A stretch of 64,000 nt of DNA from an uncultured virus (IMG/VR IMGVR_UViG_3300024308_000304) (Duplodnaviria > Heunggongvirae > Uroviricota > Caudoviricetes): the IMG/VR virus record IMGVR_UViG_3300024308_000304. One strand, given 5' to 3'. The first letter of the stretch is position 1. Every line of letters begins with the position of its first letter. Below the pieces are notes generated by a model. That model was not told the DNA's origin. It saw only the letters and a list, made by a program, of their open reading frames with translations, and searched no databases. Positions 10,336 to 56,178 of the stretch are shown piece after piece. The translations under genes were made by a program, and so were the position numbers.

Positions 10336-12612
10336 ATGAGCAAACCAAAAATGTCTGAAAGTCTTGTAAAGATTTTTACTAATACAAAGGAACTTATTTT
10401 TAAAGAAAACCACGGCCTTCTGTCTCCTGAATATCTACTATTGAAAATGATTGATTACAGTGATGATTTCAAAAATATTCTATCTCAAAATAACATCAAT
10501 GTTGATCTTCTTAGTAAAAAACTGACTGCTATTACTAAAAATTATCTTCCTCGTCAAGCTCATACTGCATTGCATGAATCTGAAAAAATGAAGATGATTA
10601 TGCAACGTACCATCTTGAAAGTTCTCAACCAGTATGTTGAAGAATTCGATGAAATTGATTTACTGCTCACTATCTTTGAAACTGCTGATGTACCAGCACT
10701 CGAAGCATTGGAATCTGTAAACTTGAAAGTAAATGATGTTGTTGAATACATGAATCAACGTAACAACAATAAAACAGTAAAAGAAGAAGAACGTGTTGGT
10801 AGTGCAACTAACGTTAACCAATTGATTCGTTCATTTGTAACTGACCTTACTGAAAAAGCTGAAAAAGGTCAACTAGAACCTATGATTGGTCGTATGGAAG
10901 AAGTTGATCGTATGGAAGTGATTCTTGCTCGCCGCAAGAAAAATAACCCAATCATTGTAGGTGATGCTGGTGTTGGTAAGACTGCAATTGTTGAAGGTCT
11001 TGCTCAAAAGATTGCTTCTGGTCAAGTACCTGATGCACTTAAAGGTTTCCGTCTGCTATCTCTTGATGTAAACGGTATGGTTGCTGGCACTAAATATCGT
11101 GGTGACCTTGAAGATCGTCTTAAAAAGATCATTGAAGCTGTTTCTAATAACAAAACTATTTTGTTCATTGACGAAATTCACAGTATCATTGGTTCTGGTA
11201 AAGCAGAAGGTGGTTCAGATATTGGTAACACACTTAAACCTTACTTGTCATCAGGCAAAGTACGTTGCATTGGTGCTACTACAACTGAGGAATATCGTCA
11301 GATTTTTGAAAAGAACTCTGCTCTTTCCCGTCGCTTCAACAAAATCGATGTGGATGAATTGTCACCAGAAGCAACCTTGCATGTATTGAAACAAATTCGT
11401 GGTGTTTATGAAAAAGATCATGGTGTAACTTATACTGATGCTTCATTGCAAAGTATCGTAAACTTAGCAAATCGCTTCTTGCATACTAAAAAGTTCCCTG
11501 ACAAGGCTATTGATATTCTTGATGAATCTGGTGCGTTTGTAAACCTTAAACTCAAAAATAAAGTTGTTGATGTAAATATTATTGAGGATATCGTTTCAAG
11601 AGCTGCTAAACAGCCCGTAAAAGAAGAAACTGGTCAAACCAGTGAACAACTTAAAAACCTTGAGAGCAACATCAAAAATGTTATCTTTGGTCAAGATGCT
11701 GCTGTTGAGAAGATTGTAGATGCAATTGTATTGAACAAAAGTGGTTTTGGTGCTGCTGATAAACCAATTGGCACTTACCTGTTCATCGGTCCAACTGGTG
11801 TTGGTAAAACTGAATTGGCTAAGCAATTGGCTAAAGAAATGAATATGGCTCTCCTTCGCTTCGACATGAGCGAATATAGAGAAAGTCACACTATTTCCAA
11901 GTTGATTGGTGCTCCAGCAGGTTATGTGGGTCATGGTAAAGGTGGTCTGTTGACTGAACAAGTAAACAAAAACCCTTACTCTGTTGTGTTGCTTGACGAA
12001 TTTGAGAAAGCTCACCCTGACGTATTCAATGCCTTCTTGCAAGTATTTGACTACGGGTTCATGACTGACTCAGAAGGTCGTAAAATTGATTTCCGTAACA
12101 CTGTTGTAATTATGACTTCTAACGTGGGTATTAAATTGTCTAACCAAGAGAAATCTGGTATTGGCTTTATGAAAACTCCAGTAGAAAACAAAAGTCTTGT
12201 TAACTGGGATACTGTGAACAGCACGTTTGCTCCAGAGTTCCGTAACCGTCTTGATGGTTTGGTTGAATTCAAATCAATTGACAAAGACATGATTAACAAT
12301 ATTGTTCAAAAGAATCTTGCTCCAATTTACGCTGAATTGAGTAAAAAAGGCTTGACTCTTGAAATGGAAACTGCAGTATTGGATCAACTTGCTGAGAAGG
12401 GTTATGAACCAGCGATGGGTGCTCGTCCAGTAGCTCGTGTTGTAAGAGAGTTGATTGCTCTACCATTGGCTAAGCTTGTAACGTTCACTGATATACCAGC
12501 AGGAACAAACTTGAAAGCCGTTTGGAAGAACGAAGAAATCTCTTTCGAGATTGGGATTGCTAACAAAAAAGCACCAACTACTCGTAGAAAGAGAACTGCT
12601 GTAGAAAGTTAA
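10336..12612 (+). CDS. clpA: ATP-dependent Clp protease ATPase subunit, ClpA-like
   Basis: Two AAA+ modules ([16 protein letters not shown]), [17 protein letters not shown] loop (SGIGF), no ClpB middle domain. Confidence 0.93.
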
Positions 12613-12613
12613 T

Positions 12614-12638
12614 AAAGAGCCGAAAGGCTCTTTTTTTT
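12614..12638. terminator. Bidirectional intrinsic terminator
   Basis: AAAGAGCC-GAAA-GGCTCTTTTTTTT. Confidence 0.85.
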
Positions 12639-13776
12639 ATTTAATTCTTTTTAAATATTTAGTATATAATACTTTGCTATCTTCAAATACATAATTGAAG
12701 TCATCTTGATTAAAATGACAATTGACTACTTTATTAAAGTCGTCTTTGACCATATGTGTCAGCAAAAATGAAGTAAGAGTATTGACATTAGTTGATATAT
12801 TACTTAAAAATCTTTTCCTTAAACATTCTTTTAAACTGAAAGGAATATTGCATTTAAATTTTTTATAGAATTTCATGCTACGTTTTTCATGATTGAAGTA
12901 ATTGTTAATATCAAAACTAATAGAATCAACATAAGGATCTAAATATTTATCACAATGATGAAGATCATCAGGCATAATCATTAATGGATTATCAGATAAT
13001 GGAGATAACGCTTTCACAAGCAATTCTACATAGGTAACTAAATCAAGATCAGGAATAGCCTTTAAGTAGTTCAAATTGTCTTCTGATAACTGGTATACCC
13101 CTAATAGATAGTTAATGGTGTAATGACAATCAAGAAAAGCTTTATTAGTGTAATAGCTATTGTAACTATAAGAATAAGCTCGAAACATGATCAAGCTCTT
13201 TAAAAAATGTTTAAATTCTATTAAATTAAAATCTTCATCCTTTAATACCTTAATAAGAGAAACAATATCAGCAACTCTTTCATGAAACAAATCAGTTTCA
13301 TTGCGTAGACTTTCTAAAGTAGAGTGTGCTAATTCATGGTAAAGAATTGTTTTAAATGTTAAGTATTCATTTTTAAAGAATACATATCCATTATTTATAT
13401 CTTTATCATTGATAAAAATATTAAAAAGTTTTGAAGCATCTTTTTTATATAGATTGGCTACATAAAAACTTGAATAAGATCTTTTATTAGATTTTGATAT
13501 CGATGTAAGTATAACAGGAACAGTAAAACCACTAAATGGATTATTAATAATAAATTTAATTTGAGATTTATTTGATTTTTTCTTATTAACAAATATATCA
13601 AATAGATTTGTTATAGTATTGTCATATTTTGTCATGGATAGAAAATCTTTTATGGCAATATCAAAGCTGAATTTATCTAAATTTGAAATACGTATATAAG
13701 CATCATTTGATTTCTGAAATGCAGTATCCCAAAAGAAAATTCTTATATCAATCCACAATTTATTCAATCTATTCAT
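12637..13776 (-). CDS. Putative HExxH zinc metallopeptidase
   Basis: LYHELAH followed by HERVAD (zincin-like third ligand). Confidence 0.55.
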   Translation of the reverse strand: MNRLNKLWIDIRIFFWDTAFQKSNDAYIRISNLDKFSFDIAIKDFLSMTKYDNTITNLFDIFVNKKKSNKSQIKFIINNPFSGFTVPVILTSISKSNKRSYSSFYVANLYKKDASKLFNIFINDKDINNGYVFFKNEYLTFKTILYHELAHSTLESLRNETDLFHERVADIVSLIKVLKDEDFNLIEFKHFLKSLIMFRAYSYSYNSYYTNKAFLDCHYTINYLLGVYQLSEDNLNYLKAIPDLDLVTYVELLVKALSPLSDNPLMIMPDDLHHCDKYLDPYVDSISFDINNYFNHEKRSMKFYKKFKCNIPFSLKECLRKRFLSNISTNVNTLTSFLLTHMVKDDFNKVVNCHFNQDDFNYVFEDSKVLYTKYLKRIK

Positions 13777-13886: not shown

Positions 13887-14504
13887 ATGAATGAGATAAT
13901 TAAAGAAGTAAATACGGATAATATTGAATACATAAATGAACAAAAACTCATAAATAAAGAATTAATAAAACAATCAACCAATCTATTGAATACAGAAGAT
14001 GATGATTCATCTAAAGGTATGCCATCAGTAATGGAAGTCATAGGTGTTTTTTTTATAATTTTCTTTATTATTACATTATCTATTTTCTTTTTTACACAAG
14101 CAAAAGAAACAGTAAATCTTAATAATGCAATTCAAGATAACACGAAATTATATACTGAATTAGTTCAAATAAAAGATGAAAATAAAGCAACAACGACACA
14201 AGAACTAATTAATTTAAATCAGTACACTCATACATTATCAAATAGTAATTTCAAAAGTGTTTGGGGTGGAGAAATTATACCAAGTATAGATAAAGATGGA
14301 ACAATTACTATTAATTATGATAATGTGCCAGTTGAATATTGTGAACAATTCATTTATAAACAAAAGTTACTTGGATGGAACTCAGTTAGTATTGCTAGCA
14401 ATAAAGGCCAAATGAAATCAATTGATTATAAAAATGAATCAGAAGTATCAAGAGAATGTTCTAAAAATAAGACTCCTATACAAATATCATTTAAAGGAGC
14501 ATAA
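13887..14504 (+). CDS. Type IVb (PilS-like) pilin-like protein, paralog 1
   Basis: Long hydrophilic leader, SKG|MPSVMEV, hydrophobic helix, SVWGG, YDNVPVEYC, second Cys near the C-terminus. Confidence 0.65.
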   Translation: MNEIIKEVNTDNIEYINEQKLINKELIKQSTNLLNTEDDDSSKGMPSVMEVIGVFFIIFFIITLSIFFFTQAKETVNLNNAIQDNTKLYTELVQIKDENKATTTQELINLNQYTHTLSNSNFKSVWGGEIIPSIDKDGTITINYDNVPVEYCEQFIYKQKLLGWNSVSIASNKGQMKSIDYKNESEVSRECSKNKTPIQISFKGA

Positions 14505-14507
14505 AAA

Positions 14508-15089
14508 ATGATTGATATTATTAAGGAAACCAGTTCAGAAAATATTGAGTATATAAATAAAGAACCAATAGCATCATCAAATAGCCTATTGAAGACTGAA
14601 AATGATAACTCATCCGAAGGAGTTTCATCATTAGTATTAATACCATTTACTTATTTAATATTTATAGTTATTATTATATTTTCAATGCTTTCATTTGACC
14701 AAATAAAACAAATAAAACAAACACAAAATACTGAGTATGCAATTAAAAAGAATGCTTCATTATATAATGAACTAATCGAAATAAAATTTAATAATGAAAG
14801 ATTAGATAATGCTCATATTTTATCAAATAGCAATTTAAAAAGTGTTTGGGGTGGAAAAATTGAGCCAATAATAGATAAATTGGGATTTATTAGTATCAGC
14901 TATAGTAAAGTACCAGTTGAATACTGCAAAGACTTCATTTATAAACAGAAGAATATAGGATGGAGTTCAATTAGTATTTCTGATAAAAAAGATAAAATAA
15001 ATGTAGTAAATTATAAAAATGAGTCAGAACTATCAAAAGAATGTTCTAAATATAATGATAATATCAATATTATATTTAAAGGAGAATAA
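14508..15089 (+). CDS. Type IVb pilin-like protein, paralog 2
   Basis: SVWGG, YSKVPVEYC, ECSK; single TM helix. Confidence 0.6.
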   Translation: MIDIIKETSSENIEYINKEPIASSNSLLKTENDNSSEGVSSLVLIPFTYLIFIVIIIFSMLSFDQIKQIKQTQNTEYAIKKNASLYNELIEIKFNNERLDNAHILSNSNLKSVWGGKIEPIIDKLGFISISYSKVPVEYCKDFIYKQKNIGWSSISISDKKDKINVVNYKNESELSKECSKYNDNINIIFKGE

Positions 15090-15092
15090 TGA

Positions 15093-15695
15093 ATGACTGA
15101 TAAAGTTAAAGAAGTTAATGAGAATAATATTGAATACATCAAAGATCAATCATATACCAATAATATAATTCTAAAGAATAAAAACAAAGTAAACTCTGAA
15201 TATTACAATCTGCAAATTAATGATAAATCAGAAATATCCGCTCCTGCTTTTTTGGTAATATTTTCCGTTGGAATTGTATGTGCTATTTTCCTTTATATTA
15301 TGTCTGAAAAATCAAATTTTATCCAAAATACTAATTATGAAATTAATAATACTTATAAACTATATAAAAAATTAGAAGCAATAAAAGTACATAACAAAAA
15401 TGAGACATCCTATAAAGAAATTACTATATTAAATAAAAATAATAAAAATATTTGGGGTGGAAAGATTGAATCCAATATTGACAAATCTGGAAATATTAAA
15501 ATTATTTATGAAAATGTTCAATCAAATTATTGTGAACCATTTATTAATAGACAAAAAGTATTAGATTGGACATCAATAAGTATTTCAGATAATAAGGATA
15601 AATCCAATATAGTAAATTATAAAGACAAGGTAGAACTATTAAAAGCATGTAGTGCGTCTAATGGTCCTGTATATATTACATTTAAAGGAAAATAA
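15093..15695 (+). CDS. Type IVb pilin-like protein, paralog 3
   Basis: NIWGG, YENVQSNYC, ACSA; single TM helix. Confidence 0.6.
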   Translation: MTDKVKEVNENNIEYIKDQSYTNNIILKNKNKVNSEYYNLQINDKSEISAPAFLVIFSVGIVCAIFLYIMSEKSNFIQNTNYEINNTYKLYKKLEAIKVHNKNETSYKEITILNKNNKNIWGGKIESNIDKSGNIKIIYENVQSNYCEPFINRQKVLDWTSISISDNKDKSNIVNYKDKVELLKACSASNGPVYITFKGK

Positions 15696-19279: not shown

Positions 19280-19831
19280 ATGATTAATACAAATTTTTTA
19301 AGGTTTATTGCTGAAATCAATCCATATAAAATTATTCAAAAACAAGTATCATTTATATCTGCATTCTATAAAGATGGAATTCCTGATGAATGGGAGAAAA
19401 CTTTAATTAAAATATTTGAGATAACCTATATTTTTCATGACTTCATAACTATTTCTGTAACATTAGGAAATGATGGGCCAGTTTTTTTAAAATATAACGT
19501 AAACAGATACACTGATGAATTTAAAGAACTCCATATTAAAACATTCGTCAAATCAATATATAATATATTACCTAATTTAGAGGTAAAAGAGTTCAATTAT
19601 CAACATGTAGATAATGTTTTTGAATTAATAATAAATAATCAGTACAAAATAGTTTTAAGTAAGAATAAAAATAATGATGAAATTACTATACACAGTATTC
19701 ACAATAAAAAAACAAAAACAACAAATCACTTTAATATAGTATTAAATTACCAAGAATTTAAAAATTTCTTAAACGAATCAGAAGAAACATTTGAAATGAA
19801 TCGAGATTTGTTTGATATGTGGTCAATGTAG
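19280..19831 (+). CDS. Hypothetical protein (C-terminal motif family)
   Basis: 183 aa, ends DLFDMWSM. Confidence 0.65.
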   Translation: MINTNFLRFIAEINPYKIIQKQVSFISAFYKDGIPDEWEKTLIKIFEITYIFHDFITISVTLGNDGPVFLKYNVNRYTDEFKELHIKTFVKSIYNILPNLEVKEFNYQHVDNVFELIINNQYKIVLSKNKNNDEITIHSIHNKKTKTTNHFNIVLNYQEFKNFLNESEETFEMNRDLFDMWSM

Positions 19832-19915
19832 ATAATAAATATCAGAAAATAATTATTGTTAAATTAAAAAATATTTGGTAGAATCTGAAAAATTTGCATA
19901 TTAAATGGAGTCAAA

Positions 19916-20512
19916 ATGGAAAATCCAATAACAAAGAGAGTTAAAAACCATCAATATTTTGGAGAGTTAGCAATTGAAAATTTCCTTAATAAACATAATG
20001 TAGAGTTCAAAATAACCAATGGTGTACGTGACGGAAAATACTATTCAATTTTTGATAAGTCATCTAATAGTTATGCTTTTTTTTTAGATATTTCAAAAAA
20101 TGGTTATATAGAATATTCTAATAGTGAAAACTCAAAAGAACTTTATAATCTATTTGTCAAAGAACATTCTTGTGAAATAACTAAAGAAGTTTATGATGAA
20201 TATCAAAAAATCAAAAAAATTATGAATAAATATACAAAAAAATTAAATAGTGGTATTAGAATGTATCATAAAGGTTATACAGCAATTTATTCTAAAAAAG
20301 CTAAAAAATTAATAGTATATCCAGATATAGTTTTCCAACGCATTGCTGCCATTTACTATTTAGCTGGGGATTTAAAAAAGACCCATGAATTAGGGCATTT
20401 AAGTGGTATACTTCATGATGAAGCTTATTCTCTAATGGATAATATTTTAGATAAACCATTAAATCAATATACAGAAGATGAATTAACATTAATGGACATG
20501 ATTGACATTTAA
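19916..20512 (+). CDS. Hypothetical protein (C-terminal motif family)
   Basis: 198 aa, ends ELTLMDMIDI. Confidence 0.7.
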   Translation: MENPITKRVKNHQYFGELAIENFLNKHNVEFKITNGVRDGKYYSIFDKSSNSYAFFLDISKNGYIEYSNSENSKELYNLFVKEHSCEITKEVYDEYQKIKKIMNKYTKKLNSGIRMYHKGYTAIYSKKAKKLIVYPDIVFQRIAAIYYLAGDLKKTHELGHLSGILHDEAYSLMDNILDKPLNQYTEDELTLMDMIDI

Positions 20513-20530
20513 CAATATCTGGAGATTAAT

Positions 20531-21133
20531 ATGTTGAAATTTTTAACTAAAATAAAAAACAAGGCAACCCCACCATTATATTTTAATCCAAGCATGAGTT
20601 TTAATATCATGTCAGGAAAAATGTTAGTGCTAACAAATCCAGAAATAGAAATGGGTGATCAAGATACTTTTTTGAAAGAAGAAAACGATGCCATTTTAAG
20701 AAGCAAAGAAAGAATTGAAAATGTGAAAGCTAAATTTTGGATATCAAAAGGTGCCGCAAGAATTCAACTGGAAGACTTAGGGACTGCTATATTTAAAGTA
20801 GGTGATAAAGTTATATTCAAAGATAGTTCAATATACAACATTGAAACATCACAAAAAGAAATAAACTATAGCTCAATGGAAATTATGATTGGTGAAATTG
20901 ATTCAAAGAGTTCTGCCGTTTATGTAATGGATCTTGGAATGTTTTATCAAGCAACACAACAATATCATAAGAACAAAGGTAAATCATTAGAAGATATCTT
21001 AAATAATTTAAACCAAAAATATTACATTATTAATGTAGCTAGTGGATACTATGAATTTGAAGTTTTAAATAAAGAAAGAAAAAGTGTTCGTGATTATTAT
21101 GGGTTATTAAAAATGAGTTATTCAAATAAATAA
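20531..21133 (+). CDS. Hypothetical protein
   Basis: 200 aa, GGAG RBS. Confidence 0.7.
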   Translation: MLKFLTKIKNKATPPLYFNPSMSFNIMSGKMLVLTNPEIEMGDQDTFLKEENDAILRSKERIENVKAKFWISKGAARIQLEDLGTAIFKVGDKVIFKDSSIYNIETSQKEINYSSMEIMIGEIDSKSSAVYVMDLGMFYQATQQYHKNKGKSLEDILNNLNQKYYIINVASGYYEFEVLNKERKSVRDYYGLLKMSYSNK

Positions 21134-23694: not shown

Positions 23695-26061
23695 TTATAC
23701 TTTAGGTTTATTTTTCTTTGGTAAAACAGATAACTCCTGTACCAATTCTTTATTGTTAACCATAAATTCATCTCTTAAATCAATAATGCTACGCTTCCTT
23801 TGCTCTGATGGCAATACTTTGATGTAATTCAAAAATTCAACTGCTAATTTTTTATCAACATCATTAATTAAGAAGTGATTATTAACTAAATTAACAGTAT
23901 CAAATTTATCACCTTTAAGTTCAGAACGTTCCATCTTCTCAACAAAGCCACGCATAGTTTTCCAGAAGCTGTAATATGGAAGTTTAATCTTAATCATATT
24001 CAATGCATCATCTTCACACACAAAACCTTCAAATTGTCTCTTAGTAGTGAAAGCACTTTCATTAGAAACTGAATTAAAGAATTTTTCAAAATTTTCTGGA
24101 GATTCAAAATGAGCAAATCTTTTTTTCACTTTAAGATCTTTAAATCCTTCTGCAAACTTTGTTAATTCTTCATAATTCAATTGTGAGAACTTGAATTCTC
24201 TCTTAACAATACCAATCAATACCAAGTGTGGTGTATCATATTTCACAATATGAGGATCATTTACTGGATCATTCACTTCAAACAGATAATTAACATTATG
24301 CTTGTTAGCAAAAATCTTCATATGTTCTAATTCAGATTTAGTAAACTGAGCTTTGGCAATATCTTTCAAATAAGTAGAAAATTCTCCACCAATATCTGAT
24401 TTAGAAGCAAAGATGAGGCTATCATTCTTTGAATCATAACCAACAATACCTAAGAAACCATTCTCTTTTTCATAAAGATTGATTTTTCCTTTAAAATTAC
24501 TTTTTACAACTTCCATTTTCGCAGAAGGAATTCCTCGTTCATTAACATTAAAGAACTTTTCAAAACCACGAGCTACAATTTCACCTGACTCAGTATTAAT
24601 AAACAAACCACGAGCATGAATTAAAAGCTCATTTTCAAAACGTTTATCAAAAAAAGCTTCTTTCTTGAAATTGAAAGCTGAAATATGTGGTAAGTCTTCA
24701 AATGTTTTTTCACGAATAAGTTCATTTGCTCTCAAATCTTTAACAATCTCAAGATTTTCTTTACTGTAGTTTACTTTATTTTCTAAAAAATCACTCAAAT
24801 TGTTAACATCTGCTTTTGTTATAAACATATTTTTTTCTTTTTCAATCTTCTCAACAGCAGTTTTATTAAATACTTTATTAGTAATATAAATACCATTAAA
24901 ACCGTTTTTATCCAATCTAAGAATTGGCAAGCTACCACCATATTCAACATCAGCCTCAAGAGCAAAGCTTTTTGGGTGAGTCTCAAAACCATGTTTATAT
25001 TGGTTTCTATGGCCATGAACTTGATACCAGTTATTATCTTGGTTTAGTTCATTAAATGTTTTATCAACATCATAACTGTAAGAACCATAACCTCTCATAT
25101 ATTCAATAGTAGTCAAAAGTCTTGGATGTTTAGGTACATTAGCAAGACCAGCATGAGTTGCCATAATATTTTTATCTCTATAATGAATAAAGCTGTAAAG
25201 ATGAAGCTTATTATAAAGCTCACGCATATCTTCTTTATTAATACCAGCTTTTAACAACTGTGGTAATGTATTATAAGTAAATTCACTTGGTGGAGTCAAA
25301 ATATCATTACTGTAGTTATACAAGTGTAATTCATGGTTCCCAGCTAAAAAAACAAAGTTCTCATAATCAATATATTTCTGAACGAAACGGAAACATTTAT
25401 CATTCTGAATACCACGATCAAGATAGTCGCCAACTAAAATATAGACTTCATCCTTGCTATAAGTGTTTTGTTCAAAGAACTGTTTCAATGGATAGAATGA
25501 ACCTTGAAGATCACCAATCCAGTTAATTTTCTTATAATGACTAAGATCCAAAAGTAAAGATTCTGGAGTTGCTTTTACATAAGCAAGAGCTTGTTCTGGT
25601 GTAATAATTTTAGATGGATCATCAAATTTTGAATTAACAAACAAATCATAGTTACGATCAAGGGCTTCTTTAGGAAGTCTTTTATACGTTTCACGTTGTT
25701 CATTTCTTTTATAATAGAATTCTTTATCCATCAATGGGAAACGAACAATTCTGTAGTCATAATGATATTGTTTCATAATGTCTAAATAAGTATCAATTGA
25801 TTTTTGATCTTGGTTTAAGTTATCAATGAAAATAGCTCCGCCATTACTCAACCTTACTTTAAATGCTTCAATAAATTTAGCAAAAACAAAATCCTCTCTA
25901 TTATTAGAAAGAACAAGATTACCAAACATATCAGTAGCAGCACCAGCGTAGACATGACGAATCGCATCCAAAGACAATGTATGTGGGTCTAATTCGTTCT
26001 CATGAATAAATGTTGATTTACCTGTTCCTGGCATTGCTGAAAGAAAATACACAATTCTCAT
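23695..26061 (-). CDS. Trifunctional RNA repair enzyme: polynucleotide kinase, metallophosphoesterase and Rnl1-like RNA ligase
   Basis: AMPGTGKS; GDLQG, GDYLDRG, GNHE, HGH; EKFFN, KENGFLG (motif I), EGFV, IKIK. Confidence 0.88.
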   Translation of the reverse strand: MRIVYFLSAMPGTGKSTFIHENELDPHTLSLDAIRHVYAGAATDMFGNLVLSNNREDFVFAKFIEAFKVRLSNGGAIFIDNLNQDQKSIDTYLDIMKQYHYDYRIVRFPLMDKEFYYKRNEQRETYKRLPKEALDRNYDLFVNSKFDDPSKIITPEQALAYVKATPESLLLDLSHYKKINWIGDLQGSFYPLKQFFEQNTYSKDEVYILVGDYLDRGIQNDKCFRFVQKYIDYENFVFLAGNHELHLYNYSNDILTPPSEFTYNTLPQLLKAGINKEDMRELYNKLHLYSFIHYRDKNIMATHAGLANVPKHPRLLTTIEYMRGYGSYSYDVDKTFNELNQDNNWYQVHGHRNQYKHGFETHPKSFALEADVEYGGSLPILRLDKNGFNGIYITNKVFNKTAVEKIEKEKNMFITKADVNNLSDFLENKVNYSKENLEIVKDLRANELIREKTFEDLPHISAFNFKKEAFFDKRFENELLIHARGLFINTESGEIVARGFEKFFNVNERGIPSAKMEVVKSNFKGKINLYEKENGFLGIVGYDSKNDSLIFASKSDIGGEFSTYLKDIAKAQFTKSELEHMKIFANKHNVNYLFEVNDPVNDPHIVKYDTPHLVLIGIVKREFKFSQLNYEELTKFAEGFKDLKVKKRFAHFESPENFEKFFNSVSNESAFTTKRQFEGFVCEDDALNMIKIKLPYYSFWKTMRGFVEKMERSELKGDKFDTVNLVNNHFLINDVDKKLAVEFLNYIKVLPSEQRKRSIIDLRDEFMVNNKELVQELSVLPKKNKPKV

Positions 26062-26182
26062 CTATTTTTATCCTGTAGTGTGTTTATATGCTTATTGTAC
26101 CACATAAGTTCCAGATTTTGAAATATTTTTTTATTGACTTGCAAGGTATTTTTTGATAAAATTTCAAAAAAAAGGAGAGTAT

Positions 26183-26899
26183 ATGTCAAGTCAACCTTCA
26201 TTGCAGTCATTCATTGAGAACTTACATAATATGGAGCATGCATTTGATGTTAGTTGCAAAGCTTTAAATTTTGAAGATTCAAAAGCATTTGGTCAATTTA
26301 ATATGTTAATTGCAGAAGGCATGGAATATTCAGCAGCCAATGTGGTTGTTCAAAGATTATTTATTTATCATATTGAAAGAAGTTTGCTTGATCATGTAGA
26401 GAAAACTAAAAGAACTGCAAATGCTTCAACTTACTATAATCACATTAATGATTATTTAGATAACCGCTCTGGCCCTTATCGTGATTTGGTATTGTTTGAA
26501 ATTGAATGCCTTATTAAAGACTCCAAGTTTTCTGTAGAATCAATTGAAAAAGAAGTTATTATTGAAACAACTTCAATTGGTCTTAATATCCTAAAAACAA
26601 TTATGGTAAATGATTGGGGCATCAACTTCGATTTAAGAAAAATAAAACAATCAGATGTTGAAGATTATTTAATGAATTATATTGGCCTTGATCGTAAAAT
26701 GGCCCTAAAATTCTGTTTAGCTACAATGTGCCGTGGCTTCGAACAAGGAGATGCAGATGTTTCAGCATTTATCCCTGAAAAATATATGGCTTGTTTTGAT
26801 GATTTCTATAATTATGTATTAGATGAACATCTTGCAAATGACCAACGTTTAGTATTAGCATTCGCAATGGTTGTATTTATGTATATGTTCAGAATTTAA
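26183..26899 (+). CDS. Hypothetical protein
   Basis: AGGAG RBS, 238 aa. Confidence 0.7.
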   Translation: MSSQPSLQSFIENLHNMEHAFDVSCKALNFEDSKAFGQFNMLIAEGMEYSAANVVVQRLFIYHIERSLLDHVEKTKRTANASTYYNHINDYLDNRSGPYRDLVLFEIECLIKDSKFSVESIEKEVIIETTSIGLNILKTIMVNDWGINFDLRKIKQSDVEDYLMNYIGLDRKMALKFCLATMCRGFEQGDADVSAFIPEKYMACFDDFYNYVLDEHLANDQRLVLAFAMVVFMYMFRI

Positions 26900-27532
26900 T
26901 TATGGTTTAAGTGTTTTAGGTTTAGGACAAAGAGCTTTAAATTCAGATGCCACTTTATTATAGAGTGGCTTATATTTTTCATGCAAACTATCCCAATTAT
27001 TTTGTGTAATAAGATAGCTTTTAGAAATATCATCATATAAATCATTAACTGATGTTGGATTAATTTTAGAATCCACTACAATTTGTTTTGCAAAATCTAA
27101 TATTCTAAATGAATGCCATAGAGATTTAAGTGATGTTGAAACGTTGAAATCTTCATCTACTATTAATTTTTTCTTAGCTTTAACATAGCTGTTAGAACTT
27201 TTTTGAGAACAGCTTTCTCTTAATTTTTCTTTGTTTAAGACAAATGAATCAAATTCTTTTTGTATCTCAGGAGAAACAAAGGCTGTTTCATGCTTGATAT
27301 ATAAACATTCTAAAACAGAAATTTCATGTTCTTTCAGTCTTTGAATGAATTCATCTTTACTGTAGTTACTAATTTCAAACTGGATACCATTTTCTTCAAA
27401 TGTTTCTTGGAAATAAGGTTTATCTGATACAACTATAAAATCAAAATCATCTGGTTTTTTATTGCCATATACTGCTGAACCATATGGGAAAATAGCTAAT
27501 GCATTGTATTTATTTTTTAAAGTGTTTATCAT
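26900..27532 (-). CDS. Pol-beta superfamily nucleotidyltransferase
   Basis: PYGSAVYG...DDFDFIVV (GS-x-DxD); GAGG RBS. Confidence 0.8.
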   Translation of the reverse strand: MINTLKNKYNALAIFPYGSAVYGNKKPDDFDFIVVSDKPYFQETFEENGIQFEISNYSKDEFIQRLKEHEISVLECLYIKHETAFVSPEIQKEFDSFVLNKEKLRESCSQKSSNSYVKAKKKLIVDEDFNVSTSLKSLWHSFRILDFAKQIVVDSKINPTSVNDLYDDISKSYLITQNNWDSLHEKYKPLYNKVASEFKALCPKPKTLKP

Positions 27533-27575
27533 GAAGTGCCTCGTTGTTATTATTATAATACCATAAAACGGAAAT

Positions 27576-27848
27576 AAAAAAAGAGAGCCTTTCGACTCTC
27601 TTATCATTCCTTTGTACAACTTCCTTTATTGTTTTACAACTTCCGTTTACATAAATTAGAATATTATCCATCAAGCATCTAATTCTTCTTCCTTCCAGCG
27701 TAACAGTCCATTATTATTTGTAATCCTTCACAACATCATCCTGATAATTTGTTCCCGATTCCTTTATTGTTTTGCAGTCCATTACATCTTGCCAGCTTGT
27801 GTTAGAAATCATTTCTTACACTATTATTGTTCTTGTCCCTGCTGACAA
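27576..27848 (-). ncRNA. CsrB/RsmZ-like sRNA with additional A-rich (CrcZ-like) motifs
   Basis: 13 GGA motifs on the minus strand, promoter TTGACA-16-TAATAT at 27880..27853, terminator AAGAGAGTC-GAAA-GGCTCTCTT-T run. Confidence 0.8.
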
Positions 27849-28130
27849 TTACATATTAACAGTATTTTTTTTGATGTCAATAAAAATTATAGCATTTCGC
27901 ATGATTTTTTATTGGCGTCAATGCTGTAACGCCATATTTTTTATAATTTTGTTATCATTTTTTATATATTTTTTTAAAGTAAATATATGTTCTATAAGGT
28001 TTTTTTATAAAAAATAAAAATAATAACATTGAACCAAAAAAAATATTGTTTTTTGCACTGTTTTATCTCTTAAATCATGTTTTTTGCAAGATGGCCATTT
28101 ACCATCAAACAGAAATATTGCTAAAAAGCT

Positions 28131-28148
28131 TGTAAGAGGAAGCTTACA
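28131..28148. promoter_or_regulatory. GacA/UvrY-type upstream activating sequence
   Basis: TGTAAG-AGGAAG-CTTACA matches TGTAAG-N6-CTTACA. Confidence 0.7.
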
Positions 28149-28167
28149 TCAATATTATTTTTCATAT

Positions 28168-28184
28168 ATCAAAATTCGTGCCAA
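28168..28184 (-). promoter_or_regulatory. Possible sigma54 -24/-12 promoter facing the sRNA
   Basis: TTGGCACGAATTTTGAT vs consensus TGGCACG-N4-TTGC (one mismatch at -12). Confidence 0.45.
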
Positions 28185-28371
28185 CTTTTTAGTTCGTAAA
28201 AAATAACAGACAAAGTGAACGCTAAATGCAGTTTTATCCAATGTGTTACAGTAATTTAACAGTCATAATAAAATAGTGACAAAAAAATGATAATTTTCAT
28301 TATTATCTTCCTTTTCAAATAAATTATGATATTACTTTATAGATGATATAAAATAAATTGGAGAAAATATT

Positions 28372-28656
28372 ATGAAATTTTTAGAAAAACTTAATCAATT
28401 ATCAGAAGGGTTATTAGACCTTAAAGAAAAATTTGAAAAAATTGACAAAGATTCTTTAATGAAAGATGATCGTGAAGAACTTGAAAAAATAGAAGATTTG
28501 CTTAGATTCTACATCAATACAACCCTTGAATTAGCTATTGATCAAAACCAAGAAATTATTTTGGAAAATAAAGATATGGTAAAAAGAATAGTGAAAGATA
28601 TAGAAAACTTCATAAAAGAAGTGAAAGAAAATATAAACGAAGATTTTGTAGGATAA
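28372..28656 (+). CDS. Coiled-coil hypothetical protein
   Basis: 94 aa, GGAG RBS. Confidence 0.65.
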   Translation: MKFLEKLNQLSEGLLDLKEKFEKIDKDSLMKDDREELEKIEDLLRFYINTTLELAIDQNQEIILENKDMVKRIVKDIENFIKEVKENINEDFVG

Positions 28657-28713
28657 TCTTTTATTTATTTAGTTTTATAGTATAATAATTATATAACAAC
28701 AGGAATAAAATTT

Positions 28714-29163
28714 ATGTCAAAGATAATTGAAAACCAATATGGTCTTCTAATTACCTTGAGTGCAAAAATAATTTTTGACGCCAAGATAAAGGAAGATAAG
28801 TGGCTTGAGGTAACTAACTATGTCAAAGATTTTGTAGGTTCAAACGTCAAAAAAGAGACATATGCCTTAAAATTGATAAAAGAACAAATTACTGAAGTTG
28901 ACCCAAACTGTATAAAAAATTTTAAAAATGATTTCACTTATAAACCAGAGTGTAAAAAATGTTATTTCAAATTGATTGATTGGATTGTCCAGATTAGTCT
29001 TAAAAGAAAACGATTAGCACGTTCGGTTAATAAAAAGACTGTGGCTAAGCATATAATTCTTGAAGAACTTATGGAAGCTAATAAGTATTTTGATAAAAAA
29101 ATAGTAGATTCTATTTTGGTTGAGAAAATCATTGATGTAAGTTTACAAAGTTATATAAAATAA
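28714..29163 (+). CDS. Hypothetical protein
   Basis: 149 aa, AGGA RBS. Confidence 0.65.
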   Translation: MSKIIENQYGLLITLSAKIIFDAKIKEDKWLEVTNYVKDFVGSNVKKETYALKLIKEQITEVDPNCIKNFKNDFTYKPECKKCYFKLIDWIVQISLKRKRLARSVNKKTVAKHIILEELMEANKYFDKKIVDSILVEKIIDVSLQSYIK

Positions 29164-29215
29164 TTGATTTAACACTAATAATAGTATAGAATAAAGCCTC
29201 CAATGGAGGTTTTTT

Positions 29216-30109
29216 ATGCTTGCAAAAATGCTTGATGATTTCAAAAAATTCGAAAATGAACAAACATTAGAATATGAAAAGTCAAAAGAAATACAAAAAA
29301 ATTATTCATTAATCTTAGAACAAGCAAAAGCTGAATTTGCTAAGATTGGTTTCTTCAAAAGACTCTTTGCAAGTGGAGATAAAAGAGATGAAATAAAAAA
29401 TCTTTCTGACTTTATTACCAAAGAAAAAGAAAAAGCCAGACAAACCGTAACATCTATTGCTAACAGAAAGCTCAATTTATATGAGGAAACAGTAAATCAA
29501 TTCATTAATGAAAATGAGTCATCTGTTAAAGAATTAAAAACTATTAATGATAGAATTAGTTACATTAGCAAAATTTATAATACATTTGCAAAAACTGTTA
29601 AAGCTGGGGATTTTGCCATCTCAGAAATTAAAGATGCAATATCAGCAGTAGATTCAGCACAGTCAACTGAGACACTTGATTTATTTACTAATAACAAAGC
29701 AATATCATTAATGTCAAGTATGAGTAATAGCAGTGCAAGAGATGAAAGTGCTTCGGCTGCTCATGCTGTTAAAAAATTCAAGAAAGAACTTGAATATACA
29801 AAAGTTGTAATTGGTGAAATGGAGTTAGACACATCATGGGGTACATTTGATTTTGTTGTTGATATGATGTCTGATGGTGGATTCTTAGATACTTTTGGCA
29901 GCTTTATGGCATTAAGTGCATTAAATGATGCAGAAGAGAATCTTAAAGAAGCTAAAAGAGAAGTATCAAAAGTATTAGATGGTGTCAAAAAAGAATTCTC
30001 TGAAATTACAAAACAAAAAGATCATGAAGATAATGTTAAGTCAGAATTCTTAAAAAATTACAGAATTAAAGCTAAAATGTATTTAAAAGAAAATGGAATT
30101 GATATCTAA
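29216..30109 (+). CDS. Coiled-coil hypothetical protein
   Basis: 297 aa, GGAGG RBS, helical with hydrophobic FDFVVD...DTFG segment. Confidence 0.7.
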   Translation: MLAKMLDDFKKFENEQTLEYEKSKEIQKNYSLILEQAKAEFAKIGFFKRLFASGDKRDEIKNLSDFITKEKEKARQTVTSIANRKLNLYEETVNQFINENESSVKELKTINDRISYISKIYNTFAKTVKAGDFAISEIKDAISAVDSAQSTETLDLFTNNKAISLMSSMSNSSARDESASAAHAVKKFKKELEYTKVVIGEMELDTSWGTFDFVVDMMSDGGFLDTFGSFMALSALNDAEENLKEAKREVSKVLDGVKKEFSEITKQKDHEDNVKSEFLKNYRIKAKMYLKENGIDI

Positions 30110-30125
30110 TCAATTCCATTCTATT

Positions 30126-30851
30126 CTATTTAAAATATTCCATTTCTAAAACATCTTTTATATTATTAGCATTGTGCCAAAAATAAATAATGTTACTAAG
30201 GCTTAAATCATTTGTGAATAATGATTGATACAAATCACCATCCAAATCAATAAATGTATAAGCGTCATGCAATGCTATTTCAAAGCTCTCCAATTTACTA
30301 TCTCTGAAAACAATATCATTTAACTTTACATTATGTTTATCTTTGATAGATAATTTTTCAACATTATAGTTTGAAAAAGGAAGATACTTGTATGCAATCA
30401 GTGAATGCTTATCCATAACATAGTAGGCTTCATATGTTTTTAAATCTAAATCAGTAGTCAAATGAAAAAACTCTTTTGTAGGAATGTCTAAATCATAATA
30501 GTATTCAGATCTATAAGTAAACTGTAAATCATTCCTATATTCACTTTTCTTTTTAGTCATCAGTTCTAAAGTTGATTGCTCATTTTTCAAAATAATCTTA
30601 GAGTAAACATAAGCACTATCAGTACGACCATAATAGGGAGTAAACAAAGTAAGAAATAATATCTTATCTTCATATTGTAAATAATAACTTCCATGAAAAG
30701 GTACAAAACCATGAGTAGTCAAAGCTTCAAGATAATTGTGTACTGAAAAAATAACACACGTTCCGGGTTCCATTAAGTATGGAATAATATTAATATCTGG
30801 TGTATATTTTATTATCTTTGTTTTTGCTGGCTTAAATTTATCTTCTATCAC
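30126..30851 (-). CDS. Hypothetical protein (C-terminal motif family)
   Basis: 241 aa, ends DVLEMEYFK. Confidence 0.65.
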   Translation of the reverse strand: MIEDKFKPAKTKIIKYTPDINIIPYLMEPGTCVIFSVHNYLEALTTHGFVPFHGSYYLQYEDKILFLTLFTPYYGRTDSAYVYSKIILKNEQSTLELMTKKKSEYRNDLQFTYRSEYYYDLDIPTKEFFHLTTDLDLKTYEAYYVMDKHSLIAYKYLPFSNYNVEKLSIKDKHNVKLNDIVFRDSKLESFEIALHDAYTFIDLDGDLYQSLFTNDLSLSNIIYFWHNANNIKDVLEMEYFK

Positions 30852-36053: not shown

Positions 36054-36139
36054 GCGGATGTGGCGAAATTTGGTAAACGCGACCGTCTCAAAAACGGTTC
36101 TTTATAAGATTGTGAGTTCGAGTCTCACCATCCGCACCA
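36054..36139 (+). tRNA. tRNA-Leu(CAA)
   Basis: Cloverleaf, loop CT-CAA-AA, long variable arm, ACCA end. Confidence 0.92.
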
Positions 36140-36224
36140 AATAAAAAATGGGTTGCTCTGGTCACTGACTGGAACCTTTAAAACATACTAACTATGAATA
36201 CTAGTATTATTAAAGGCAAACCCC

Positions 36225-36309
36225 TGACAAAAGTGATGAAATGGTAGCCATGACACCGAGCGAAGGTGTGCCCAATAAGGCGTGAGGGTTCAAGTCCCTT
36301 CTTTTGTCA
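36225..36309 (+). ncRNA. tRNA-Leu-like RNA with aberrant anticodon loop (GAGCGAA), 9-bp acceptor helix, no CCA
   Basis: Intact D arm, variable arm and T arm (GGGTTCAAGTCCC); lacks U33. Confidence 0.7.
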
Positions 36310-36320
36310 AGTTTAAGAAT

Positions 36321-36404
36321 GCGTTAGTGGTGGAATGGTATACACGTTGGTCTAAGAAGCCAATGCCGCAAGGATTGAGAGTTCAAGTCTCTCCTAACGC
36401 ACCA
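36321..36404 (+). tRNA. tRNA-Leu(AAG)
   Basis: Loop CT-AAG-AA, long variable arm, ACCA. Confidence 0.92.
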
Positions 36405-36415
36405 AATTAAGATAT

Positions 36416-36500
36416 GCCCTGATGTTGGAATAGGTAGACATAACGGTCTAAGAAGCCGTGGCCGAAAGGCATGCGAGTTCGAGTCTCGCTTAGGGCACCA
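36416..36500 (+). tRNA. tRNA-Leu(AAG)
   Basis: Loop CT-AAG-AA, ACCA. Confidence 0.92.
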
Positions 36501-36509
36501 AATATAAAA

Positions 36510-36594
36510 GCCTCTCTGGCGGAATTGGTAGACGCGGCGGATTCAAAATCCGCTTCCGAAAGGAGTGTGGGTTCGAGTCCCACGGGAGGCACCA
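36510..36594 (+). tRNA. tRNA-Leu(CAA)
   Basis: Loop TT-CAA-AA, ACCA. Confidence 0.93.
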
Positions 36595-36610
36595 AATTGT
36601 TACAAATTAT

Positions 36611-36696
36611 GCCCAAATGGTGAAATTGGTAGTACACAGGAGACTTAAAATCTCCCGGCGAAAGTCGTGTCGGTTCGAGTCCGACTTTGGGCACCA
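36611..36696 (+). tRNA. tRNA-Leu(TAA)
   Basis: Loop CT-TAA-AA, ACCA. Confidence 0.93.
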
Positions 36697-36835
36697 GATT
36701 ATTACAAACAGCCCGTAGTTACTAGGGTGTTGATAGGAGCTAAAGAAATGCTGCTTGATAAGTGTTTAAATGTACACCTCTTGCGGGAGAAAGGTCAAGG
36801 TGCGGGCGTTGATTATCAACTTGTAATAAAAATAT

Positions 36836-36919
36836 GCGGAAGTGACGAAATGGTAGACGTGCTGGTCTTAGAAGCCAGTGTCGAAAGACGTGTGGGTTCG
36901 AGTCCCACCTTCCGCACCA
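36836..36919 (+). tRNA. tRNA-Leu(TAG)
   Basis: Loop CT-TAG-AA, ACCA. Confidence 0.93.
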
Positions 36920-36921
36920 GA

Positions 36922-37073
36922 TTGCTTAAATGATGGAATGGTAGACATAGGGTGATAGCCCTGTCATTTACAGGTTCGAATCCTGTTATTAGCAGAAATG
37001 TTAATATGGCGGAACGGTAGACGCGATGGACATTGAGTCCATGACTTGTAGGTTCGAGTCCTACTTTAAGCAA
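36922..37073 (+). ncRNA. Strand-swapped double tRNA-like RNA
   Basis: Two D/T-arm sets; outer 9-bp helix TTGCTTAAA/TTTAAGCAA; inner 8-bp helix TATTAGCA-GAAA-TGTTAATA. Confidence 0.75.
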
Positions 37074-37081
37074 CATATTAT

Positions 37082-37165
37082 GCGTTAGTGGTGGAATGGT
37101 ATACACGCTGGTCTAAGAAGCCAGTGCCGAAAGGATTGTGAGTTCGACTCTCACCTAACGCACCA
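37082..37165 (+). tRNA. tRNA-Leu(AAG)
   Basis: Loop CT-AAG-AA, ACCA; near-duplicate of 36321..36404. Confidence 0.92.
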
Positions 37166-37186
37166 GATTAAAAAAAATGTGTTTAT

Positions 37187-37271
37187 CCCCGGATGGTGGA
37201 ATTGGTAGACACAGGAGACTTAAAATCTCCCGGCGAAAGCCGTGTCGGTTCGAGTCCGACTCCGGGGACCA
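37187..37271 (+). tRNA. tRNA-Leu(TAA)
   Basis: Loop CT-TAA-AA, ACCA. Confidence 0.93.
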
Positions 37272-37281
37272 GTTTTAAAAA

Positions 37282-37373
37282 TTCAATATCGAAGGTTCGA
37301 ATCCTTCTCTCGTGTAATAACGGGGTGGTGAAGTGGTAGACACGTTTGCTGAAATGCATTCTAAAATATTGGA
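37282..37373 (+). ncRNA. Circularly permuted tRNA-like RNA (T arm, closed acceptor helix, D arm), Y-RNA-like topology
   Basis: GAAGG-TTCGAAT-CCTTC, then TCTCGT/ACGGGG, then GTG-AAGTGGTAGA-CAC, enclosed by TTCAATAT/ATATTGGA. Confidence 0.65.
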
Positions 37374-37385
37374 TTACTTTTTTAA

Positions 37386-37471
37386 GCCCGAGTGGTGAAA
37401 TGGTAGACGCGGGGGACTTAAAATCCCTTTCCTTAATCGGAGTGCCGGTTCGAGTCCGGCTTCGGGCACCA
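37386..37471 (+). tRNA. tRNA-Leu(TAA)
   Basis: Loop CT-TAA-AA, ACCA. Confidence 0.92.
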
Positions 37472-37541
37472 AATGTATACTAAAATTTGTTGACTTATTT
37501 TAATATTTGATTTAAAATATCGGCAAATTGAGGTAAATAAA

Positions 37542-37883
37542 ATGAATAAAAAATCTAAAGGACAAGTAGTTTTTGTCAATCTGTATGATAACCGTTATTG
37601 GAATGTATTTCTTGATGGTGAATTATTTCATGAAATACATAAGGAAGACTTCACAACATATGTCTTCAGAGAATCAAACAGAAAAGCATTGGCTAAAGCA
37701 TCATCACTTGATGAAAAAGATCTTCGTTATTCTTATATAGATCTTGAAAATGGCATTAATGAAGATGAATACAATTCAAATGATTATCAAGAATTTCAAG
37801 TAGTTTTAAGTGCTTGCAATTTCTATAATATTGATTATGTATTTAAAGATGTAAACTACGAATACATTGAAACTAAATACTAA
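37542..37883 (+). CDS. Hypothetical protein inside the tRNA array
   Basis: 113 aa, GAGGT RBS, own TTGACT promoter. Confidence 0.7.
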   Translation: MNKKSKGQVVFVNLYDNRYWNVFLDGELFHEIHKEDFTTYVFRESNRKALAKASSLDEKDLRYSYIDLENGINEDEYNSNDYQEFQVVLSACNFYNIDYVFKDVNYEYIETKY

Positions 37884-37912
37884 TAATTGGTAGAATGTAG
37901 TAATAAATTAAT

Positions 37913-37997
37913 GCGGAAGTGATGGAATGGTAGACATAGCAGTCTCAGAAGCTGCTGCTGTAATGGCGTGAGAGTTCAAGTCTCTTCTTCCGTACCA
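37913..37997 (+). tRNA. tRNA-Leu(CAG)
   Basis: Loop CT-CAG-AA, ACCA. Confidence 0.92.
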
Positions 37998-53675: not shown

Positions 53676-54281
53676 TTAAATCATCATCATCTCAAATAAT
53701 TCAAATTTTTCTTTATATCCCATATTCTTAACATCAACGCCATTTGCTATAAAATAAGCATTATATTGATTCTCAATGTCATTAAATAAGTCATTAAGCT
53801 TATGATTTTCAAACATTAAAAAATAAGATGAGCTTACATAATTTTTTTTGTCAAAACAAATAGGTGTCGTACTATCATTAAAAACAAAAGTTGTAGTAAT
53901 TAAAGGTTTATTTATTATTAAATGTTTTACAAAACTTATTTCTTTGGAATATTGCTTTGACAAAAAAAAGTAAAAATTATTAATATAAAAAAGAGCTTTT
54001 TCCCCTAAATCATTAAAATTTTTATCATAAAATTTAATACATTTATTATTTTTTTTATCATATTGAATGGAAACACAAACAACAATTTCATTATTAAGCT
54101 GTTTAAGATAGGCATTTGCAATATCGCCACTGCCATTTGTCAAAGAATCATGATAAATACAAAGTCTAACATGATCAAAATATACATCACGTTTAACTTT
54201 ATAACTATCAAATTTTAAATTTAATTCTTTTTCTATCAAGTTAACAAAAAAAGAATCATTCAATTGATTTATGTTAATCAT
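53676..54281 (-). CDS. Hypothetical protein (C-terminal motif family)
   Basis: Ends FELFEMMMI. Confidence 0.65.
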   Translation of the reverse strand: MININQLNDSFFVNLIEKELNLKFDSYKVKRDVYFDHVRLCIYHDSLTNGSGDIANAYLKQLNNEIVVCVSIQYDKKNNKCIKFYDKNFNDLGEKALFYINNFYFFLSKQYSKEISFVKHLIINKPLITTTFVFNDSTTPICFDKKNYVSSSYFLMFENHKLNDLFNDIENQYNAYFIANGVDVKNMGYKEKFELFEMMMI

Positions 54282-55206: not shown

Positions 55207-55264
55207 ATCTGATACCTTTATAAATTTGATAGCAATTATACTAAATTATAGACAAAAAATCAAT

Positions 55265-56167: not shown

Positions 56168-56178
56168 AATCAAACTCC

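Follow-up and report, generated by a model that had tools for sequence, protein, structure and literature searches.

GacA/UvrY boxes ahead of the genes for CsrA-sponge RNAs are textbook regulation in the Gammaproteobacteria. As described in the portions of two reports on which we draw, the UvrY repeat of csrB is centered at -183/-182, with an IHF site between the repeat and the promoter (PMC4682653), and GacA boxes occupy positions -75 at rsmY and -196 at rsmZ (PMC4950607); both reports print the consensus as TGTAAGNNNNNNCTTACA. Here, we analyzed a 64-kb stretch of DNA (hereafter, the window), catalogued in IMG/VR as the uncultured virus IMGVR_UViG_3300024308_000304, in which a palindrome matching this consensus lies upstream of a GGA-rich small RNA (sRNA) gene. 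As far as sequence can tell, this GacA/UvrY-type box is real, rare, under selection, and physically tied to a candidate sponge RNA gene of the Csr/Rsm type.

A first-pass annotation of the window had listed four motifs upstream of the sRNA, all of which are present at the positions given below, and had proposed that they provide a dual input, one arm based on GacA and the other on sigma-54 and CbrB. This proposal survived in part. The GacA/UvrY-type box, which matches the consensus at 12/12 bases, is conserved in two diverged relatives and adjoins the sole GGA-rich sRNA gene of the window, held up; the sigma-54/CbrB half did not. The annotation had itself ranked that half below the box. Only TGTAAG-N6-CTTACA exceeds chance.

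An exact and rare GacA/UvrY-type motif

The box is an 18-bp palindrome, TGTAAG-N6-CTTACA (TGTAAGAGGAAGCTTACA; positions 28131-28148, strandless), that agrees with the published consensus at all 12 specified bases. The first-pass annotation had placed it about 285 bp upstream of the sRNA as an exact match, which is confirmed. No second exact match exists in the 64 kb, and 100 dinucleotide shuffles of the window did not yield a single one. From base composition, we calculated that a match at 12/12 bases is expected ~0.007 times per window. When up to two mismatches were allowed, four sites were observed against 4.11 expected, so it is the exact box alone that stands out. Counted from the sRNA start at ~27846, as predicted by a promoter scan, the near edge of the box lies 285 bp away and its center at about -293.

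The box adjoins a candidate sponge RNA gene

The sRNA gene (27572-27847, minus strand, ~275 nt) is of the Csr/Rsm-sponge type as judged from its GGA count, conserved hairpins, and terminator. Its 276 nt hold 13 GGA triplets, the mean for the window being 1.89 (standard deviation 1.49), and nowhere else in the window does a stretch of that length reach 11. Directly downstream lies a gene for a 211-aa nucleotidyltransferase-like protein (26900-27535, minus strand), with PF18765/PF01909 recorded on some of its homologues. On the other side, a gap of ~525 bp, which contains all of the motifs discussed here, separates the sRNA gene from a divergent 94-codon gene without family match (28372-28656, plus strand). 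Anchoring a search on the nucleotidyltransferase-like protein and its homologues, we retrieved 20 metagenome loci, five of which (L081-L085) keep the gene order of the window: 94-codon gene (with homologues at the same position in all five), gap, sRNA, and nucleotidyltransferase gene.

The orthologous sRNAs of these relatives carry 10-21 GGA triplets. A fold computed from the alignment of five of the six sRNAs retains the terminator and two hairpins, one of sequence UAUCA-GGA-UGAUA and a longer one whose loop reads GAUGGA. The sixth, that of L081, was omitted owing to an internal duplication. This ortholog (L081, 3542-3959) measures 418 nt and contains 21 GGA, its length being explained by a duplicated internal block of ~150 nt; the sponge grows by tandem duplication.

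Transcription of the sRNA would start from a near-consensus sigma-70 promoter (27853-27880, minus strand), composed of a -35 element TTGACA (27880-27875), a 16-nt spacer, and a TG-extended -10 element TAATAT (27858-27853). Both TTGACA and TA(A/G)TAT are kept in all six loci. At the other end, a conserved intrinsic terminator stem (27581-27602, minus strand) is followed by a run of T residues (one found against 0.2 expected). Just after the ClpA gene, a stretch of 31 nt (12612-12642) aligns with the terminator region of the sRNA over 33 columns at 91% identity; it looks like a shared terminator module.

The RNA has the properties by which sponge RNAs are recognized, namely numerous GGA triplets, of which several occupy hairpin loops, together with an intrinsic terminator, and it lies outside the families of Rfam: no Csr/Rsm model matched at the gathering score, and none appeared at E<=10 over positions 27450-28400, the only hits of the two scans being tRNAs and sub-threshold noise. 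From these sequence features, we regard the sRNA as a sound candidate for a Csr/Rsm-type sponge whose family is uncatalogued.

Conservation and spacing of the box in related loci

The identical 18-mer, spacer included, occurs at the same place in L081 and L083, so that three of the six orthologous loci, counting the window, carry the box. The proteins flanking it have diverged between the window and these two relatives (68% identity for the nucleotidyltransferase and 49-51% for the 94-aa protein). In a three-way alignment of the gap, identity amounts to 65% between the window and L081, 63% between the window and L083, and 74% between L081 and L083, with half of the columns invariant. The longest invariant run in this alignment, the 20-nt TGTAAGCTTCCTCTTACAAG, includes the box and exceeds every promoter block. 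From the center of the box to the start of the sRNA -35 element, the distance is 259.5, 261.5, and 261.5 bp in the window, L081, and L083, respectively, i.e., constant within 2 bp; measured to the promoter block conserved ahead of the divergent gene, it is 178.5, 192.5, and 191.5 bp in the same three loci.

A larger stretch of the L083 genome could be inspected, since the box 18-mer was found once in IMG/VR, in a record of 181,270 bp (G006) that is 100% identical to L083. In these 181 kb, there is one box at up to one mismatch, upstream of the sRNA, and the sRNA is the clear GGA maximum, with 15 triplets per 280 nt against nine at the next locus. The single box and the single strongly GGA-rich stretch of this sequence adjoin each other. 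We also considered whether the segment with the box is a multi-copy miniature element and rejected this, the 492-nt gap having no second copy in the window or in any locus compared.

The association between the exact motif and GGA-rich RNAs extends to named genomes. Five such genomes, reached through TrxB, were checked, and three of them (Acinetobacter nosocomialis, A. parvus, and a Psychrobacter) contain exact boxes, seven in all. Behind six of these seven, a GGA-rich, terminator-ended RNA follows within ~100 nt. An eighth box, at 11013-11030 of L074, lies 86 bp after trxB in a metagenome-assembled genome of the Gammaproteobacteria and has no GGA-rich RNA beside it; an exact motif can thus occur without a sponge RNA. 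With six of eight boxes adjoining such RNAs, the motif marks the genes of Gac-controlled sponge RNAs with fair specificity. The six short RNA genes directly behind the boxes in A. nosocomialis, A. parvus, and the Psychrobacter (L102-L107) are probably Rsm/Csr sponge RNAs of the Moraxellaceae.

Proposed mechanism and alternative explanations

With a confidence little above even, we propose that the palindrome at 28131-28148 is a selectively maintained site of the GacA/UvrY type (BarA-UvrY, GacS-GacA) that serves the adjoining sponge sRNA. A phosphorylated response-regulator dimer of the GacA/UvrY family would bind the box and, acting from about -293 across an A-tract-rich spacer of fixed length, would raise transcription from the sigma-70 promoter of the sRNA by bending or looping the DNA. 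An active Gac-type kinase would then lead to more sponge RNA and to the release of CsrA-repressed mRNAs. The proposal builds on an exact and rare motif, on its conservation down to the spacer, on the conserved distance to the sRNA promoter, and on a one-to-one pairing with a GGA-rich RNA gene that is the sole one of its kind in the window, as it is in the relative's 181-kb record; from these, we infer the identity of the binding protein, the target promoter, and the activating effect. The regulator may be the replicon's own or that of a host.

Several observations weigh against this proposal, the first set of which concerns how widely the box is conserved. The nucleotidyltransferases of L081 and L083 are 91% identical; these two loci are close to each other, and the conservation accordingly rests on two independent lineages. 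In L082, L084, and L085, no box was found even at up to three mismatches within 1.6 kb upstream of the start of the nucleotidyltransferase gene, a range that extends to ~1.1-1.3 kb upstream of the sRNA start. These three loci retain the sRNA and its promoter, and their gap is only ~160-185 bp long, ~340 bp including the box being absent. As no locus is closer to the L081/L083 pair than L084 (~70%), this module of ~340 bp has probably been lost more than once. Given that the sRNA promoter is intact in the loci that lack the module, the input through the box looks like an add-on and not like a requirement.

The architecture of the locus raises further difficulties. The near-consensus promoter of the sRNA does not look activator-dependent, and a box at about -293 falls outside the published range of ~-75 to -196. 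In the Moraxellaceae, the box precedes the -10 element by 48-52 nt in all six loci, as opposed to the ~260 bp that separate box and -35 element in the lineage of the window. An IHF consensus between the box and the promoter is missing from the window; it is exact in L081 and has one mismatch, in the same column, in L083. The box, a palindrome without orientation, also lies 224 bp from the ATG (28372) of the divergent 94-codon gene. As to the regulatory partners, neither the window nor the 181-kb record, which cover about a tenth of such a genome, contains a CsrA or GerE-domain gene, and the placement of the lineage is ambiguous, with TrxB falling in the gamma/beta-proteobacterial radiation and ClpA at most 47% identical to that of any named bacterium.

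Some of these points would be accommodated if the box were real, whether of the GacA/UvrY type or other, and either served the divergent 94-codon gene and the next two genes in that direction or acted on both promoters, with the sRNA driven by its strong promoter regardless. The position of the orientation-free palindrome, the near-consensus sRNA promoter, and the three boxless loci that still keep the sRNA and its promoter would all fit. However, the boxless loci retain the 94-codon gene as well, so which loci have the box says nothing about which of the two targets it serves. Moreover, among the box-bearing loci, the spacing varies by no more than 2 bp up to the sRNA promoter and by 13-14 bp up to the divergent promoter block, and the strong direct targets of UvrY/SirA in E. 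coli and Salmonella are, in the part of the report drawn on here, the RNA genes csrB and csrC (PMC4682653). We consider a divergent target unlikely.

An equally improbable explanation is that the palindrome is a conserved operator of an unrelated dimeric regulator, its identity with the GacA consensus being a coincidence in a lineage that has no Gac system. The lack of a GerE-domain gene from both the window and the 181-kb record, a ClpA that is not gammaproteobacterium-like, and the atypical position near -293 point in this direction. Against it stand the 12/12 match, with its expectation of ~0.007 per window and its absence from all 100 shuffles, the fact that the box adjoins the sole GGA-rich RNA gene in the window and again in the relative's 181 kb, and the six cases out of eight in which the exact motif marks such RNA genes among named relatives. 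A GacA/UvrY-type site acting on the sRNA is thus the interpretation we retain, at the strength stated above.

The proposed sigma-54 and CbrB input

The second arm of the proposed dual input begins with a sigma-54-like element, TGGCACG-N4-TTGA (TGGCACGAATTTTGA; 28183-28169, minus strand), which lies 35 nt before the box, faces the sRNA, and comprises a -24-like half with no GC at -12. A sigma-54 consensus has GG at -24 and GC at -12, in the spacing TGGCAC-N5-TTGC. The corresponding sequences of the relatives, TGGCACGTATTTTGG in L083 and TGGTATGATTTTTGA in L081, have the same 35-nt offset from the box, as is thus the case in all three box-bearing loci. The -24-like TGGCACG itself is found in two of the three (the window and L083), L081 having TGGTATG, and TGG is common to all. 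The GC at -12 is absent from every one of them (TTGA in the window and L081, TTGG in L083). The window has four motifs of the form TGGCAC-N5-TTG at up to one mismatch, fewer than the 7.79 expected, and in 97 of 100 shuffles the count is at least as high. The first-pass annotation's reading of this element as a functional input is consequently not borne out, the motif being at chance frequency and its -12 GC missing in 3/3 loci.

The CbrB part of the proposal relied on a single TGTTAC hexamer (28244-28249, plus strand), most likely a chance occurrence. TGTTAC is found 28 times in the window against 31.8 expected. The best local pairing of the form TGTTAC-N12-GTAACA has two mismatches, and such sites at up to three mismatches amount to 33 against 39.8 expected. 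The hexamer is conserved in neither of the two relatives (L081 and L083). CbrB sites need at least three subsites (PMC6296734), and CbrAB is described as exclusive to pseudomonads, in the portions of the literature drawn on here. A lone hexamer at chance frequency, with no good partner and no counterpart in the relatives, does not support CbrB input.

Taken at full strength, the dual-input reading holds that a sigma-54 promoter at 28183-28169, served by a CbrB-like activator at TGTTAC, produces a longer transcript that starts near 28157, crosses the box, and continues into the sRNA, with GacA control operating alongside. The recurrence of TGGCACG in the window and L083, and of TGG in all three loci, always 35 nt before the box, speaks for it. 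Speaking against it, besides the missing -12 GC, the chance frequency of both motifs, the lack of conservation of TGTTAC in both relatives, and the requirement for several subsites in a system reported as pseudomonad-specific, are the boxes of the Moraxellaceae, which have no such element upstream, and the stretch between the box and the sRNA promoter, which has no terminator or RNA-like feature. A transcript starting near 28157 would also pass straight through the GacA-type box. We judge this reading very improbable. The sigma-54-like element, the TGTTAC hexamer, and the TGGCGT palindrome described below do not support a second input by CbrB and sigma-54; the conserved TGG-N-A-N-G...TTTTG block may instead be the site of another protein.

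Other elements of the intergenic region

The fourth motif of the first-pass annotation is the palindrome TGGCGT-N10-ACGCCA (27913-27934, strandless). For inverted repeats of 6 bp whose arms are rich in G+C, the expectation in the window is ~0.16 per 386 nt, which makes this one mildly unusual when taken alone. Its promoter-proximal arm lies in the conserved block GCGTCAATAAAAAA, and an A-tract follows that arm. A block G.C.A(A/T)AAAAAA is kept in six of six loci, and it holds only that arm; the palindrome as a whole is not preserved in L081 or L083, and we rejected it as a regulator site. The conserved arm and the A-tract may play a role like that of an UP element.

Between the box and the promoter, there are two direct copies of TGCAAAAAAC, 31 bp apart (28048-28057 and 28079-28088, minus strand). 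Across the three loci with the box, the second copy does not vary; the window and L081 also have the first. These repeats may be a site for another DNA-binding or DNA-bending protein. We also looked for a canonical promoter ~50 nt from the box, as in the Moraxellaceae, and discarded the idea, as no -10 element, GGA-rich stretch, or terminator was found on either side.

Nature of the replicon

Speaking of a host presupposes a phage, and the phage framing of this DNA is unproven. The window is part of an AT-rich prokaryotic replicon of at least 1.5 Mb: its TrxB is recorded on a contig of 1,539,155 bp, and the contigs of relatives measure 1.04, 0.60, and 1.86 Mb. Shine-Dalgarno sites precede 46 of 66 genes, against 4 and 8 in two controls, a signal that rules out a eukaryotic giant virus. 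Among the proteins encoded in the window are TrxB, GAPDH, CoaD-CoaE, NadR, AsnB, ClpA, Fpg, Ogt, MsrA, and SufE. We lean towards a cellular chromosome, by our estimate about twice as likely as the alternative, perhaps that of a host-associated bacterium rich in lineage-specific genes.

The alternative is that a gammaproteobacterium carries the locus on a very large mobile element, a phage or one of another kind, that has integrated, with the box plugging an element-borne CsrA sponge into the Gac system of the host. We regard this as possible, though doubtful. It draws support from the 181,270-bp IMG/VR record, which is classed as a provirus with a CheckV completeness of 58%, and whose ~34-134 kb are colinear with positions 1.5-60.7 kb of the window at 65-75% nucleotide identity. 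A search for capsid, portal, terminase, and tail families of PHROG found none in 45 open reading frames (ORFs) of the window and 152 of the 191 ORFs of this record, and a rescan of the 34 largest unannotated ORFs at E<=0.001 again returned no virion family, which counts against an element. A provirus-labeled stretch of 181,270 bp without virion families may be either a false provirus call or a very unusual element. Size also counts against an element, since contigs carrying these genes reach 1.54 and 1.86 Mb and our literature search found no phage above 1 Mb. Neither a comparison of 27400-28700 with a phage collection nor one of 26000-30200 with a plasmid collection gave a DNA match, and searches of IMG/VR anchored singly on the 211-aa and 94-aa neighbor proteins found no relative, which also tells against an element. 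Two IMG/VR matches to a degenerate promoter pattern (L109 and L111, 43% G+C) were dismissed as unrelated chance matches. Gene order is conserved across genomes at ~70% nucleotide identity, an observation that fits either reading.

The gene content speaks for an element. The region is dominated by ORFs without a family match (60 of 68 flanking ORFs have no NCBIfam hit at 1e-25), and it carries redundant tRNA arrays. The array of the window (36054-37997) packs 12 genes into 2 kb, ten of which are tRNA-Leu genes with five anticodons. In the relative, one array has 13 genes, mostly Leu (G006/L115, 17614-19500), and another 12 genes for Ala, Arg, and Met (L119, 16104-18247). Dense redundant arrays of this sort are odd for a genome of 1.5-1.9 Mb. 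Genes for RNA repair are also present: 1.5 kb from the sRNA, the window encodes a 788-aa fusion of kinase, phosphatase, and RNA ligase (Pnkp-ligase; AAA_33, Metallophos, and RNA_lig_T4_1; 23695-26061, minus strand), and the relative has an RtcB ligase (L112, 8791-10227). Together with the tRNA arrays, these ligases look like a tool kit for tRNA repair. The relative further encodes an IleRS of 841 aa (TIGR00392, 644 bits, above the cut-off; L117, 13758-16283, minus strand) and an archaeal-type non-discriminating AspRS of 422 aa (PRK05159, 428 bits; L112, 5308-6576, minus strand), both of them atypical for Gammaproteobacteria. The arrays, the repair genes, the two atypical synthetases, and the nucleotide and NAD genes are all consistent with an element.

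So are the mixed origins of the conserved proteins. TrxB is ~70% identical to gammaproteobacterial versions, the best among the matches listed being 70% (Moraxella), and in a quick tree its clade sits on a long branch within the gamma/beta radiation, where no named lineage is its sister. ClpA, in contrast, shows 61-98% identity within its own clade and at most 47% to any named bacterium. The Atlas clusters nearest to the neighboring nucleotidyltransferase are labeled 63-100% viral, which we take as a lead only; a second Atlas look-up, with an ORF that has no family matches, gave no usable match.

Tandem runs of similar-sized ORFs without family are a further feature of this DNA. In the window, they lie at 54274-57111 (minus strand), 13887-15695 (plus strand), and 19280-21133 (plus strand), and comprise three ORFs of ~305 aa, three of ~200 aa (two with a weak match to the PilS N-terminus), and three of ~190 aa. 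In the relative, L117 3613-9381 contains seven ORFs of ~250-285 aa. Likened here by their size, the members of such runs may be paralogues.

In its most specific form, the element reading takes the window and its 181-kb counterpart as a very large integrated element or virus-like replicon with its own sponge RNA, tied to the host's GacS/GacA through a remote, spacing-constrained box, in a family where some sisters lost the module. This version we think rather improbable. The surroundings are nevertheless odd enough, with their ORFs without family, tRNA arrays, extra aminoacyl-tRNA synthetases, and RNA-repair genes, for a public catalogue to call the region a provirus. Were that label true, a mobile element with a Gac-controlled CsrA sponge would be new, none being described in a literature search at the level of titles and abstracts, and it would amount to an element-borne takeover of the host's global post-transcriptional switch.

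Comparison with known systems

By combining a GacA-type box with a candidate sponge RNA in an uncatalogued RNA family and an AT-rich lineage, the locus mainly extends a known pattern. Its module of ~340 bp, kept in some loci and lost in others while the RNA stays, provides a natural experiment in the rewiring of Csr control.

Pseudomonas crcZ and crcY, driven by sigma-54 and CbrB, resemble the locus in having a TGGCAC-type -24 element and, as in the window, TGTTAC upstream of a non-coding RNA (PMC6296734, as far as drawn on here). The window differs in that it has no -12 GC and one subsite in place of at least three, in that its hexamer is unconserved, and in that CbrAB is reported only from pseudomonads.

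The Pseudomonas RNAs rsmX, rsmY, and rsmZ share the 18-bp motif with the locus, and the logic would be the same, with a Gac two-component system leading to RNAs that titrate RsmA (PMC4950607; PMC2375449; in the portions consulted for these systems). The published boxes, at -75 for rsmY and -196 for rsmZ, are nearer to their promoters, and the RNA of the window matches no Rsm/Csr model of Rfam at E<=10. The Moraxellaceae loci likewise pair an exact box, one arm of which often reads TGTAAGC, with short GGA-rich, terminator-ended RNAs, and differ from the window in their much shorter distance between box and promoter.

The csrB gene offers a further parallel, with an 18-bp palindrome of the same consensus far upstream of the sigma-70 promoter of a GGA-rich CsrA-sponge RNA gene; it differs from the window, where the box stands at about -293 from the predicted start, no IHF consensus is present, and the -35 element is of consensus sequence. 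If the box works, it works from farther away than in any of the published cases compared. The arrangement is unusual in two ways, in the distance of about -293 and in the promoter with its consensus -35 element. The box is unusually remote and dispensable; the kind to which it belongs is well known.

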